Shown: one piece after another, positions 15,384-19,241 of the stretch
Layout: each line of letters starts with the position of its first letter
Numbering within the stretch: the first letter of the stretch is position 1
From: Promethearchaeota archaeon
GTDB taxonomy: Archaea > Asgardarchaeota > Thorarchaeia > Thorarchaeales > Thorarchaeaceae
Reading direction: 5' to 3'
DNA length: 64,000 bases
NCBI GenBank assembly: GCA_014728035.1
Contig: WJMJ01000059.1
Span: forward strand, 256,001 to 320,000
Notes under the pieces: model-generated
What the model was told of the DNA's origin: nothing
The model's input: only the letters and a program-made list of their open reading frames with translations
The model's database searches: none
Program-made: the position numbers and the translations under genes

Positions 15384-15770
15384 ATGAAAATGAGCGACCC
15401 AGTAATGGATGCATATACTCAAGCATACGAGGCATCTGGTCAGATGGTCCAAGCGTTTGGAGTCATCACGACAGGTGGACAGGTACTATGGCAAAGCGAT
15501 AACTGGGACCTTACTGCTGATGCCCAATCCCTAGCCGGTGCTGTTGGAAAGGGTGTTGCCAGTGTTACACAAAATGAGGTCAAATATAGTACCATTCGAT
15601 CAAGCCCAGAGAGCCTAGTTGCTCGAAGTGTTTCTGGAAATGGAACTCTAGTACTTGCCAAGATTGAAGATGGGAAGTTTGTGATTGCATGGGCTTCTCC
15701 TGATGCGGCTCCTGACGGCGTCTATGTAGATGTTGATCGTGCCGCAAAAGCACTGAAAGGCAAGGTTTAG
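15384..15770 (+). CDS. Asgard profilin (paralogue 1)
   Basis: ~126 aa; G.VLWQSDNWD and V..NEVKYSTIR..PESLVA motifs typical of Asgard profilins; GGGTGA SD favours a start at 15390. Confidence 0.85.
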   Translation: MKMSDPVMDAYTQAYEASGQMVQAFGVITTGGQVLWQSDNWDLTADAQSLAGAVGKGVASVTQNEVKYSTIRSSPESLVARSVSGNGTLVLAKIEDGKFVIAWASPDAAPDGVYVDVDRAAKALKGKV

Positions 15771-15787
15771 TTGAATATATTCGGAAC

Positions 15788-15818
15788 AGGACATGGGCCA
15801 GGAAATATGCCCTGTCCT
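15788..15818 (+). terminator. Stem-loop between the two profilin genes
   Basis: aggaca(t)gggc ... gccctgtcct inverted repeat 17 nt after the profilin-1 stop codon. Confidence 0.5.
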
Positions 15819-15852
15819 CTCCAAGGTTTTTGATTCGTTGGTGAATTGGATA

Positions 15853-16227
15853 ATGGATGATATAATAAATCAAGAATGGCAGTATCTCTATTCATACAAT
15901 CCTAAGATTAAGGCATTTTGTGTCTGTAAAGGCTCTGAAGTCATTTGGCAGACATCTAATTGGGATCTTGTTTCAGATGCGCCAACAATAATACGTGCTC
16001 CACGTGAAAGTGCTCAAAAAGTTGTGGTAAATGGAGTAACGTATAATCGTGTAGACTCAAATGCTGAACGCTATATTGCATCAGCAACTGGAGATCAGGG
16101 TCATCTAATTGTGGCTCTAATTGAACTTGATAATTGGGCGATAGCTTGGGCAACTTCTGATGCTGTTCCTGAGCTGGCAGGTATTGATCTGGCTTATTCC
16201 GCAATACAACTTGTTGGAAATCTATAG
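15853..16227 (+). CDS. Asgard profilin (paralogue 2)
   Basis: VIWQTSNWDL, VVVNGVTY and GHLIVA..W motifs align with paralogue 1. GGTGA SD at 15840 supports ATG 15853 rather than 15793. Confidence 0.8.
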   Translation: MDDIINQEWQYLYSYNPKIKAFCVCKGSEVIWQTSNWDLVSDAPTIIRAPRESAQKVVVNGVTYNRVDSNAERYIASATGDQGHLIVALIELDNWAIAWATSDAVPELAGIDLAYSAIQLVGNL

Positions 16228-16303
16228 AATCTTTACTCAACTTTCAAAAGTAATTGGTTCTATTTTCTATAAAGAGTATCAGTTAATTCAGGTCGGAAAT
16301 TGT

Positions 16304-17194
16304 ATGCGCGAAACAACCCACGATGATGTAAAAGAATTATACAAGAAAGGTATTCAGTATGAACGATTTGGCGAGCTTAATGCCGCAGAAGAGGTTCTAC
16401 AAAATGCTGTAGCAATCGATGAACAATTTTCTGATGTTTGGAACTTGCTTGGAATTGTGTATAAAAAGAAGAGAGACATTGAAAAATCTAGACATGCATT
16501 GAAAAAAGCGGGGTCTCTCGATCCAGATTGGGCTGAACCTTGGATGCATCTGGGACTATTAGAACTCGATAATCATCAATTTGAAGATGCGATTTCCGCA
16601 CTGGAAAAGTACGTTAGCTTAGGAGGGGATGATACACACGTATTGATTCGTTTAAGTAGGACGTATAGTGATAGGAACGATTGCGAATCAGTCATCAGAA
16701 TAACAAAGAAAATTTTGAAACTTGAGCCAAATAATACTGAAGCTTGGTCATTACGTGGTTTGTGTGAAAAGAAACTCTCTCTAGAAGACGAAGCCCTCGA
16801 AAGTCTGAGCAAATCCTTGGAATTGAAATCCAATCAAGTTACTGTTCTTGACGCTATAGGCGCGATTTATTATGATCGTGGAGACTTCGAGAAATCGTTA
16901 GAGTATTACGGTCCAAGTCTAGAGATTGAGCCAATTAATGTGCCAGTTCTTTTCAGATACGGTACATCTCTGTGGTTTACAGGTGATTGGCAGAGGGCCT
17001 TGGACTATTTGCAAAAATATGTAGAATTATCTCCAGATGATGCAAAAGGATGGAATAATCTTGGTGTGGCATATCGAGAAAAGGGGGAAGTGAAACGAGC
17101 TTTGGAGTGTTTTAAGAGAGCTATAAATCTAGCTCCAAATATGGAAACCGCACAAAGTAATCTTGATATGGGCACCAAACATGCGCTTCCGTAG
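16304..17194 (+). CDS. TPR repeat protein
   Basis: Repeated W..LG..Y....A...F.KA..L.P units; ATG 16304 avoids overlap with the profilin gene. Confidence 0.9.
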   Translation: MRETTHDDVKELYKKGIQYERFGELNAAEEVLQNAVAIDEQFSDVWNLLGIVYKKKRDIEKSRHALKKAGSLDPDWAEPWMHLGLLELDNHQFEDAISALEKYVSLGGDDTHVLIRLSRTYSDRNDCESVIRITKKILKLEPNNTEAWSLRGLCEKKLSLEDEALESLSKSLELKSNQVTVLDAIGAIYYDRGDFEKSLEYYGPSLEIEPINVPVLFRYGTSLWFTGDWQRALDYLQKYVELSPDDAKGWNNLGVAYREKGEVKRALECFKRAINLAPNMETAQSNLDMGTKHALP

Positions 17195-17198
17195 CCTG

Positions 17199-17954
17199 TT
17201 ATCCAAATATTATCTCGCGCATTCTTTGTTGAATCTCTTGAAACTCTGATAACCCACTAGCTCGAAGTCTTACTAACCAATCATACAGCTTTAGAGCTTT
17301 TTCGTCTGCAACATCTCCCTTTACCATTTTGATGATTGGTCTTCTATTATCAAAATAGATTTCATCGGTTTTGACTAATAGTTCTACAAGTTCGCTCTCT
17401 TTCTCTTCAGAGAGTTTAATTCCGAATACTTTTTCCAATCTTTCAATACTGGCCTTTGCGCTCTTGACTATTTCTGCCCTTTTCTGTGTGCTGTGAACTG
17501 TGACAACAAACCCTTTTGCAGTTCTTCGATAATAGTGTGTTGTACGTTTTCCAGTTTCAACCTTACCGTATTCTATGATATATCCCGCATCGATTAATTT
17601 TGGTAAATGATGATAGACCTGATTCTTGGTAATCTCTTCTACTCCTTCAAGGACCTCAGACTGATTCACAATCTCTACTACCGATAAGGCATATCGTTGT
17701 ATTTTTTTCACTCTGATAATTCGTTCCCCAGTTTCTTCATTGAACTCCTCTGTGGTTTGAGTGTCTTCTTTTCCTTTTCGTAGGATTTTAATGATACTCA
17801 ATCTTACTGGATCATCCAGCATTTGTGCTCGCTCGTCATCTTGCACAAATTCAATCTCTTTCATCTCCTTTTTTCCTTCTTCAGTAAGTTCAATTTCCTT
17901 TAGTGTGTCTGTGAGATTATCACTCATTGTTTGATCTTCCATATTCCTTTTCAC
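17199..17954 (-). CDS. ArsR-like winged-helix transcriptional regulator (true start probably 17942 or 17927)
   Basis: LDDPVRLSII, VYHHLPKL..AGYI and YYRRTAK motifs. Confidence 0.85.
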   Translation of the reverse strand: MKRNMEDQTMSDNLTDTLKEIELTEEGKKEMKEIEFVQDDERAQMLDDPVRLSIIKILRKGKEDTQTTEEFNEETGERIIRVKKIQRYALSVVEIVNQSEVLEGVEEITKNQVYHHLPKLIDAGYIIEYGKVETGKRTTHYYRRTAKGFVVTVHSTQKRAEIVKSAKASIERLEKVFGIKLSEEKESELVELLVKTDEIYFDNRRPIIKMVKGDVADEKALKLYDWLVRLRASGLSEFQEIQQRMREIIFG

Positions 17955-17983
17955 ACATACATCTTATGATTTTCCATATTAAA

Positions 17984-18099
17984 GTTTTGTTAACCAAACC
18001 ATTTTTAGACAAATACTTTATAATTTTTAGTTTGTAAAGCAAACCTTTATATTGATTTGAGTATACACTATAATTGTAAGATGGTTTGTTTTACAAACC
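17984..18099. promoter_or_regulatory. Divergent promoter with three palindromic operators (consensus GTTTG-N5-CAAACC)
   Basis: 17984 gttttg-ttaac-caaacc; 18029 agtttg-taaag-caaacc; 18083 ggtttg-tttta-caaacc (inside a perfect 8-bp inverted repeat, 18082-18100). TATA-like tttataat at ~18017 and tttatatt at 18046. Confidence 0.75.
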
Positions 18100-18112
18100 A
18101 AGGTGATTAACA

Positions 18113-18214
18113 ATGGCAGAAACAAAACAACAAGACTGCGATACCAAGAAGGAAATCCACGCAAAGGCCCCAAAGGCATTGGCGTTGTATCATGCATATA
18201 AATATCGGAGGTAA
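18113..18214 (+). CDS. Micro-ORF 1, 33 aa: MAETKQQDCDTKKEIHAKAPKALALYHAYKYRR
   Basis: AGGTGA SD at 18101; TATA upstream; similar to micro-ORF 2. Absent from the supplied ORF track (too short). Confidence 0.7.
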   Translation: MAETKQQDCDTKKEIHAKAPKALALYHAYKYRR

Positions 18215-18219
18215 ATCTA

Positions 18220-18306
18220 ATGGCTCAAGAGAAAAATAAGACTGATAGAAAGATTCGAAGAGACATTTCGACTAAAGCAATCGGTTACTCATATCAATAC
18301 AGGTAG
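18220..18306 (+). CDS. Micro-ORF 2, 28 aa: MAQEKNKTDRKIRRDISTKAIGYSYQYR
   Basis: GGAGGT SD at 18207 overlaps the ORF1 stop codon; paralogous to ORF1. Confidence 0.7.
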   Translation: MAQEKNKTDRKIRRDISTKAIGYSYQYR

Positions 18307-18312
18307 ATGAAG

Positions 18313-18432
18313 ATGACAATTAGTCAAGATTCCCATAGATCTGGTTTGAGTGAGCCTTGCCAGCAATCTGTTGAAAAACAGAATTGTCGAAATCTCAATT
18401 GTGATGAAGTGCTCATGCTGGAATGCACATGA
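18313..18432 (+). CDS. Possible micro-ORF 3, 39 aa with 4 Cys: MTISQDSHRSGLSEPCQQSVEKQNCRNLNCDEVLMLECT
   Basis: AGGT SD overlaps the ORF2 stop codon with similar spacing, but its 3' end runs into a terminator-like hairpin. Confidence 0.35.
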   Translation: MTISQDSHRSGLSEPCQQSVEKQNCRNLNCDEVLMLECT

Positions 18433-18437
18433 GCACT
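18408..18437. terminator. Hairpin between convergent transcription units
   Basis: agtgctcatg / catgagcact perfect 10-bp inverted repeat. Confidence 0.6.
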
Positions 18438-18443
18438 CACCAT

Positions 18444-19241
18444 TTATTTTTTAAAAACTAACTGATAGAAAGTTCCATTATAGATATAATCAACCTCCAC
18501 ATCTTTTGCTTTTTCAGGTATTTGTTCGAGAGGTGGTTTTGCTGCAAATAACGCGTTTGCCTCAACAATTGCCTTACCTCTATCAGTCCCTCGTACCTTT
18601 GGTGATAGACCTTCGTCAATTACTAGAATTGTCCCCTCCGGTTTTGCTACACGTAACATCTCCTTCAGTGCTTCCGAGATGTCTGAGAAAGTGTTAATTC
18701 CACCTGTATGAATGACTAAATCAAACTGGCTTTTTCTAAAAGGCATGTTGAATACACTTGCGTGAAGTAAAGCTACTGGAAGTTTTAGTTGGTTCATTTT
18801 ACTTTTTGAAACCTGTAACATCCCTGTGGACAAATCAATTCCATACAAATCAAATCTAGGTTCATTCTTTCTTATATGTGGTGCTAGAGCCTCAAAATTG
18901 GCAGCAGTACCTATACATACATCAAGTATCGAAACCGAACTCTTTTTCGGGATGAATTTTAGCAAATCTTCTCTTCCACTGGAAATGTCCGCTCCTAGAA
19001 AATCATCGTATTGTTTAACAAGGTCATCATATTTTGGAGCGAGCTCATCATATTCATCTATCCATCTCTTATCTTCTTCAGAGATTGGTGGATATACACA
19101 CGAAAGAATCTCTCCTTCCATATTCCAGACATGTCCTTTCTTGCATGCTATTTCAGCATCAATAAGTTCTGTGTTTGGAGGTATAATGATTTGATTCTTG
19201 CATTTCGGGCATCTTAGTTTCTTCAACATATTCGATTTCAT
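18444..19241 (-). CDS. Class I SAM methyltransferase (UbiE/MenG-like) with N-terminal Trm112-like Zn ribbon
   Basis: LRCPKC...C..GH; ILDVCIGTA, GIDLS.GM, PF....FD and ALKEMLRV.KP.G motifs. Confidence 0.85.
   Translation of the reverse strand: MKSNMLKKLRCPKCKNQIIIPPNTELIDAEIACKKGHVWNMEGEILSCVYPPISEEDKRWIDEYDELAPKYDDLVKQYDDFLGADISSGREDLLKFIPKKSSVSILDVCIGTAANFEALAPHIRKNEPRFDLYGIDLSTGMLQVSKSKMNQLKLPVALLHASVFNMPFRKSQFDLVIHTGGINTFSDISEALKEMLRVAKPEGTILVIDEGLSPKVRGTDRGKAIVEANALFAAKPPLEQIPEKAKDVEVDYIYNGTFYQLVFKK

Follow-up and report, generated by a model that had tools for sequence, protein, structure and literature searches.

Sequence evidence for a lineage-wide, undescribed microprotein system of Thorarchaeota encoded by short tricistronic operons

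The DNA analysed here, in the following termed the window, is a stretch of 64,000 nucleotides on contig C25 of a host genome of 4.3 Mb. A gap of 490 bp between the gene of a winged-helix regulator (ArsR/PH1932-like, 242 aa; minus strand, 17199–17927) and that of a convergent class I methyltransferase (minus strand, 18444–19238) contains three short open reading frames on the plus strand, all of them present as the original prediction had described. ORF1 (18113–18214) encodes peptide A of 33 aa, which the family profile places in a basic A/B family, ORF2 (18220–18306) its paralogue, peptide B of 28 aa, whose TAG stop lies in frame with the following ORF as recorded in a junction survey, and ORF3 (18313–18432) peptide C of 39 aa, which belongs to a separate, mostly acidic family and has an alternative in-frame ATG at 18307 directly abutting the ORF2 stop. 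Each ATG is preceded at a distance of 7–8 nt by a Shine-Dalgarno (SD) sequence on the same strand. That of ORF1 (18101–18106) is complementary to the 16S tail of the host genome, and the SD cores of ORF2 (18207–18212) and ORF3 (18301–18304) overlap the stop codons of ORF1 and ORF2, respectively, which confirms the predicted arrangement. Likewise confirmed were a separate TATA box of the unit, recognized by its sequence at 18046–18051 (plus strand) in a conserved geometry, and a closing hairpin (plus strand, 18408–18437). The latter is a conserved RNA element which folds in the window transcript, overlaps the last codons and the stop of ORF3 and precedes a T-tract apparent from the sequence (plus strand, 18443–18452), as expected for a 3′ end or terminator element. 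Three palindromes of the GGTTTG-N5-CAAACC type, termed op1, are located at 17984–18000, at 18029–18045 immediately 5′ of the peptide-operon TATA box in the position of a BRE, and at 18083–18099 in the inferred 5′ UTR shortly before the first SD. The first of them is abutted by a TATA-like box of the regulator promoter (minus strand, 17976–17983; sequence and PWM scan). The original prediction had overlooked these palindromes as well as the further copies of the unit in the host genome. The regulator gene is oriented divergently from the peptide operon and its product is the presumed op1 binder, while the methyltransferase gene is a common but non-obligatory neighbour outside the core system.

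The coding character of the three ORFs was assessed by comparison with the orthologues of a sister species, which is independent of the family profiles. It yielded a pN of 0.21 and a pS of 0.77 for the pooled A, B and C frames (Fisher p ~1e-15), the individual pN and pS values being 0.20 and 0.67 for A, 0.12 and 0.93 for B, and 0.28 and 0.75 for C, next to 0.14 and 0.84 for the regulator. Missing ORFs or disrupted frames at orthologous loci had been set beforehand as counting against the prediction; found were retained peptides with a pN far below pS. The family profiles recognized 10 A/B ORFs (E <= 8e-6) and 5 C ORFs (E <= 3e-8) in the host genome, E-values which are not independent as these ORFs were part of the training set, and gave 0 matches in the reversed host genome. 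Over 182 distinct A/B peptides the dN/dS ratio was 0.35, with 0.51 in the basic middle part as opposed to 0.22 for the C-terminal core; the conserved Ser, Thr and Ala residues of these peptides are encoded by all of their codons. Comparative sequence analysis thus confirms the three ORFs as real genes under purifying selection.

The A/B peptides follow the consensus M-A-L-A-[KT]-N, a Lys/Arg-rich stretch, S-T-x-A-[ILV]-x-x-[AS]-[YF] and finally 3–5 mostly Arg-terminal residues; in a shorter form of the motif, the core position before [YF] is given as A instead of [AS]. Their net charge is +5, compared with −3 for C, and they possess neither a signal peptide nor a hydrophobic stretch (median maximum 11-residue hydropathy 0.65). 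The Y-x-Y-R ending on which the original prediction had been built is shared by only 82/221 members, the most frequent ends being Y-R-R and F-R-R; conserved in the family is the S-T-x-A-type core instead. The assumption that the terminal Arg is partly forced by the overlapping SD also holds in part: AGG codons prevail at sites that have to supply an SD, but last-in-chain peptides without a coupled gene retain Arg-Arg in the form of CGC, CGT or CGG codons. Because it persists there with non-SD codons, the terminal Arg can, judging from codon usage, be attributed in part to the SD and in part to selection. A further suggestion concerned docking through a C-terminal Tyr-X, as in peptides which gate the proteasome by an HbYX motif. 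Although some B peptides end with Leu/Met/Phe-Tyr-Arg, the HbYX motif requires Tyr in the penultimate position, preceded by a hydrophobic residue (PMC10349142). Hb-Y-X is found in only 15/221 members, neither window peptide being one of them, and a penultimate Tyr in 20/221, so that proteasome gating is largely refuted and hardly credible.

The A/B profile matched 76/76 genomes of the Thorarchaeota family with 1–14 copies each, and found no credible match among 224 other Asgard genomes, the single weak match being interrupted by an internal stop. A search of 1.84 billion proteins returned 76 matches, all of them short (29–90 aa), and the 15 inspected ones were family members or mis-called extensions. 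Pfam contained no match for the three window peptides and NCBIfam none for 86 A/B or 27 C members; the peptides matched no family in PDB sequences or the ESM Atlas, and no description of the peptide family was found in the literature. The view of an undescribed small-peptide system is supported by these searches, and the check proposed with it, carried out on the relatives, revealed conserved ORFs in variable copy number with a dN/dS ratio below 1. On this comparative basis we consider the lineage-wide, undescribed microprotein system to be real. Its genes were overlooked by standard annotation despite their presence in every genome of the Thorarchaeota family searched, and the peptides appear to be the mark of a tightly regulated programme that defines this lineage of close eukaryotic relatives.

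ORF3 had been regarded as a weaker, Cys-rich ORF. Instead, it represents a second conserved family, in which only 29% of the members contain any Cys and a variable, mostly acidic N-terminal part is followed by the conserved 12-residue end L-[TS]-x-x-E-V-L-x-[LW]-E-A-T. At a loose threshold, the C profile matched 75/85 relatives. Homology between C and A/B received no hhalign support, and the idea of C as a detached N-terminus of an MFS protein was rejected for the same lack of support. The DNA encoding the conserved C end doubles as that of a 13-bp RNA helix, whose compensatory changes include ones touching the stop codon; 86% of cells are paired (slid controls, 19–45%) and double-sided changes amount to 36 versus 15 in shuffled data. 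Of 65 loci located solely through their hairpin DNA, 58 have an open frame between the coupled ATG and the stop in the hairpin, and most of the 7 exceptions with a closed frame contain an extra, unrecognized divergent peptide in between. An Rfam search gave nothing near a gathering score.

The junction between B and C is more constant than that between A and B. Its stop codon is TAG in 41/54 cassettes, followed in 35 cassettes, including that of the window (18304–18315), by exactly 6 nt in frame, while the A–B spacers measure 4–8 nt in all frames; on a tree of 51 cassettes, 7 spacer changes were counted at B–C versus 16 at A–B. Obligatory read-through from B into C was nevertheless rejected because 4/39 spacers contain in-frame stops and because the two ORFs are not in frame with each other in several lineages and in 4/5 cassettes of the host genome. 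Recoding by pyrrolysine was also rejected, as PylS was detected in 0/86 genomes with a working control and the tRNA-Pyl reported by ARAGORN (G000 C51:15308–15405) has a broken anticodon arm, this irregular molecule probably being a mis-folded intron-containing tRNA. Two of the B–C fusion proteins of ~70 aa in the protein library were traced and turned out to be gene-caller artefacts with TAG read as Gln. A bulged SD pairing offers the simpler reading of the conserved spacing, and the chance of a facultative read-through is slim. At three loci (L051, L105, L109), divergent B variants of 37 aa fall below profile detection but are still joined to C by an in-frame TAG.

The window carries the regulator-linked copy of the operon. 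Four more A-B-C cassettes in the host genome use another promoter with a different palindrome, op2, and these are found at the same four loci in the host and the sister species; four of five copies of the latter share their loci with the host genome, in which the fifth locus is empty. The op2 cassettes are 89–98% identical within each genome versus 81–85% between the genomes, regardless of the locus. Because identity is higher within a genome than between the same loci, the sequences point to homogenization of the op2 cassettes by gene conversion rather than to transposition. The window copy escapes homogenization, with 69% identity to its own orthologue and about 48% to the other cassettes. 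A MITE-like mobile element was rejected as an explanation, as the copies reside at shared loci and the cassette ends, inspected by eye, lack a shared inverted repeat. Homogenized, dispersed protein-coding cassettes of 400 bp within one genome are unusual in themselves, and their homogenization at fixed loci suggests that dosage matters. At locus L144 (G000 C8:60446–60865), an MFS gene is preceded by a stack of three promoters (op1, op2 and a mirror-type op2 whose half-sites are spaced by 11 bp) and by a degenerate sixth peptide. A weak A/B-like frame at G000 C65:28340 lacks a start codon and may be a decayed copy. In one clade (L072, L075, L078, L083, L091, L093, L095, L118 and L166) an open frame of ~40 codons after A/B extends through the next promoter and may encode a fourth peptide type or be a by-product of conserved operator DNA.

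The only Pfam matches of the regulator were HTH/PadR entries below cut-off. Its AlphaFold model (pLDDT 87) found its best PDB match in PH1932 from Pyrococcus horikoshii (1uly/2cwe; E 4e-9), whose winged HTH plus C-terminal helical domain is the closest solved fold; the regulator differs from it by a sequence identity of 20%, TM values of 0.39–0.48 and a long β-hairpin insertion. We know of no peptide partner of PH1932. The predicted link between the peptides and the divergent regulator proved to be conserved: of the 34 loci of the regulator orthologue, 30 have peptides in a head-to-head arrangement, one of the 4 misses being a split contig whose other half bears a peptide, and each of the 21 orthologous peptide loci examined has an op1 site, which in most cases directly adjoins the TATA box. 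With op1 on both the regulator and the peptide-operon promoters, the geometry would be that of a repressor which also autoregulates, and we infer that the regulator binds op1. Signalling or anti-repressor peptides acting on this regulator would, tentatively, be the best reading among those offered by the original prediction, but plain repression of the peptide operon accounts just as well for the conserved link and the shared operators. When the regulator dimer was co-folded with peptide A, the score was 0.00, which is no evidence either way. DUF362 is an op1 target in a lineage-specific manner only, and distant regulator paralogues showed no op2 sites. Divergent pairs of more distant, longer regulator paralogues occur at L343–L345, with a small GTPase-like gene beside 2/3 pairs. 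An unannotated protein of 313 aa is preceded by an op1-like site (L142:2078–3019; G000 C10), and a look-alike of its gene is divergent from a regulator paralogue in another genome (L356).

The neighbourhoods of 124 peptide loci were surveyed, with gene clusters judged from their sequence and only some of them profile-scanned. The recurrent co-oriented downstream genes encode MFS proteins of two types. Type 1, of the H+-antiporter/Mef/EntS group and DHA3-like, follows the peptides directly in 23 loci, in the slot taken by C elsewhere, and is translationally coupled where the B junction is resolved; type 2 is found in 20 loci behind a promoter of its own, with op1 and op2 promoters interleaved at several of them. 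In the host genome, no intact coupled DHA3 MFS gene was detected beside any cassette, only partial homologues elsewhere in it. The coupled architecture resembles that of the mef/erm leader peptides, in which a short ORF ends with a stop codon that coincides in part with the SD of a DHA3 efflux gene. Accordingly, the last 12–14 residues might act in cis within the ribosome tunnel as arrest leaders gating the coupled downstream ORF, be it MFS or C, and the conserved residues just before a stop that overlaps the next SD would suit such a role. However, the same peptides also occur with nothing to regulate and as up to several tandem paralogues; chain-terminal peptides without a coupled ORF keep both the motif and Arg-Arg with non-SD codons, the distance from motif to stop varies between 3 and 5 residues, the N-terminus is conserved as well, and stand-alone A-B-C cassettes could regulate only C. 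Also unlike mef/erm leaders, RNAalifold revealed no alternative hairpins at the junction. We therefore regard arrest leaders as decidedly unlikely.

Beyond the peptide loci, op2 precedes the gene of a bactofilin-like protein in 28/28 genomes (control 0) and that of a 7-TM membrane protein in 6/23. The name of the bactofilin-like protein (411 aa) is based on a Pfam bactofilin match above cut-off and a β-solenoid model, a Foldseek search having given no significant match to a solved structure. Its gene (L143:3841–5073; G000 C16) is highly conserved and also present in several other Asgard families. Such regular co-regulation, together with the MFS coupling, raises the question whether the peptide core binds to a product of the same regulon, such as the MFS or the bactofilin-like filament, or to some other protein of the cytoplasm, by analogy with SgrT, AcrZ and MgtS, which are bacterial small modulators of a partner protein. 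A short conserved motif after a disordered region indeed resembles a binding motif, with a hydrophobic residue and a Ser/Thr helix cap. On the other hand, the bactofilin-like gene also exists in Asgard families where no peptide was found and most cassettes are unlinked to an MFS gene, which renders partner modulation unlikely.

A weight-matrix scan of the host genome placed op2 also before a second MFS paralogue and before one tldD-pmbA pair. Op2-like sites precede the corresponding pair in 8/29 genomes; the host site is strong (20 bits; controls <= 4.2), those of the seven others, from few genera, are weak, and in one genome the pair is divergent from an MFS gene. Independently of op2, a clade of regulator paralogues shows translational coupling to tldD at each of 11 loci, which represent five genera, with pmbA downstream where the context is long enough. 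Members of this clade head tldD(-pmbA) operons at L028, L353–L360, L362 and L363, with op1-like sites upstream in about half of them, and are candidate peptide-sensing regulators of peptide catabolism. Four tldD homologues exist in the host genome, and TldD/PmbA pairs are common housekeeping peptidases here. TldD/E truncates unfolded peptides processively from the N-terminus, but the E. coli enzyme leaves the unmodified microcin B17 precursor uncut (PMC5810440). Taken together, op1 and op2 would define a regulon of MFS pumps, the bactofilin-like protein and sometimes TldD/PmbA, which makes the function directly testable.

The original prediction had further considered leader-plus-core precursors modified in trans by the products of the convergent methyltransferase and GNAT genes. 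In the sister species, the methyltransferase has lost residues 1–179 and the GNAT protein all but its first 46 residues, while the peptides are intact; a deletion (L216:5128–5525) fuses the first 46 GNAT codons to the last 85 methyltransferase codons beside the intact operon. Moreover, no methyltransferase orthologue was found in two 96–98% complete genomes that keep the peptides. Both enzymes were thus rejected as dedicated peptide modifiers, whereas the leader-plus-core layout, now combined with TldD/PmbA, is still plausible. The tandem paralogous short ORFs, the coupling to a putative exporter and the candidate TldD link recall the microcin B17 and microcin C operons, in which tiny precursor ORFs are associated with an MFS exporter and genomically linked to TldD/PmbA, and Tyr-x-Tyr is common in the core. 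Accordingly, the peptides could be RiPP or leaderless-bacteriocin precursors with a Tyr/Ser/Thr core that would be modified by enzymes encoded elsewhere before its export as an antimicrobial. Microcin operons, however, possess cyclodehydratases, adenylases or other linked modifiers, and no radical-SAM, P450, YcaO-like or other modifying enzyme was recognized by sequence in the recurrent, partly profile-scanned neighbour clusters of the 124 loci. The A/B peptides also lack the C-terminal Asn or the Gly/Ser/Cys-rich core of microcins, and their core is less amphipathic than shuffled versions (helical moment 0.245 versus 0.301 ± 0.009), unlike the amphipathic helical leaderless bacteriocins. Their distribution is universal and chromosomal, not patchy as for a weapon, and the promoter pattern gave 0 matches in viral contigs. 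An antimicrobial precursor is, on balance, very unlikely.

High copy number and homogenization within the genome, a transcript that is structured and bears a conserved hairpin at its 3′ end, and strongly positive A/B peptides with conserved Tyr/Phe and Arg and no export signal would suit intracellular, stoichiometric microproteins of stress or dormancy. Like SASP or ribosome hibernation factors, full-length A/B would coat DNA, RNA or ribosomes and C would neutralize or release them, while the MFS and bactofilin-like genes merely share the same developmental regulon. The SASP genes of Bacillota are also multi-copy and tiny, with a strong SD, a 3′ hairpin and a dedicated switch; the peptides differ from them in the absence of sequence similarity, half the length, the tricistronic order and the coupling to a transporter. 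The sole PDB look-alikes of the N-terminal half are the basic tails of eS1 and uS11, at non-significant E-values of 0.5–1. As the peptides resemble no named family, conservation within A/B is lowest in the basic half, and both the translational coupling to MFS and the connection of the regulator family with TldD would stay unexplained, we consider such a dormancy function somewhat unlikely.

Our preferred reading, held tentatively, is a peptide-precursor circuit in which a regulated, dosage-amplified operon acts as a peptide signal or effector. Gene reality, selection, translational coupling and shared operator DNA make up its established part, as far as genome comparisons reach; the further steps are given in the order of decreasing certainty. 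First, the divergent winged-helix protein would repress the window copy as a "master" copy, and itself, via op1 sites over BRE/TATA and in the 5′ UTR. Second, another factor would drive the dispersed copies through op2. Third, TldD/PmbA might trim the variable Lys/Arg-rich N-terminal half of A/B, leaving the conserved C-terminal core of 12–14 residues. Fourth, this core might cross the membrane via the coupled DHA3-like MFS and/or bind to the C-terminal helical domain of the regulator, with feedback on the regulon including the cell-shape-type filament protein. Finally, the acidic C, in the MFS slot of other copies, might bind or buffer the basic A/B. Selection concentrated in the C-terminal core fits the leader-plus-core layout. 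Against the precursor circuit count the lack of a signal peptide or hydrophobic stretch in A/B, the lack of an intact coupled DHA3 MFS at the host cassettes, the indirect TldD link via a regulator paralogue and an op2 site that is strong in the host only, the housekeeping nature of TldD/PmbA and the uncut microcin B17 precursor, the 8–14 gene copies, which exceed the usual need of signalling, and the variable 3–5 residues after the core.

A specific version of the circuit would be cell-to-cell signalling, in which precursors of ~30 aa are trimmed by TldD/PmbA, exported by the DHA3 MFS and sensed by the ArsR/PH1932-type protein that governs the bactofilin-like regulon, with a possible B–C read-through product. 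We know of no peptide-based cell-to-cell signalling circuit in any archaeon, and this version, if true, would constitute a peptide communication system in archaea with a cytoskeletal-type output; we consider it doubtful. Rgg/SHP, Rap/Phr and ComR/ComS of the RRNPP family are peptide quorum-sensing cassettes of Bacillota. The operon shares with them a short precursor gene that is oriented divergently to the gene of a DNA-binding regulator, here under a candidate op1 operator, a variable basic N-terminal part with a conserved C-terminal core, several paralogues per genome, and a peptidase plus a transporter in the regulon. In contrast to RRNPP systems, the thorarchaeotal regulator is ArsR/PH1932-like without a TPR domain, the A/B peptides lack a hydrophobic signal region, transport would be of MFS instead of ABC type, and three coupled ORFs form homogenized multi-copy cassettes whose receptor binding is putative. 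By analogy, the peptide system may work like Rgg/SHP or microcin-type operons, yet it is a member of neither because a TPR receptor, a signal region and a linked modifying enzyme are absent.

Two further features were noted on the far side of the regulator gene. A TPR protein is encoded convergently with it (16160–17194), but at this position only in the host genus and one other locus, and is for this reason not a conserved receptor. Two tandem profilin-like genes are present at 15384–15770 and 15793–16227, the first with a weak Pfam profilin match. The pair adjoins the regulator in 20/20 clustered orthologous loci, possibly by mere synteny, and deserves mention in view of the bactofilin-like gene in the regulon.
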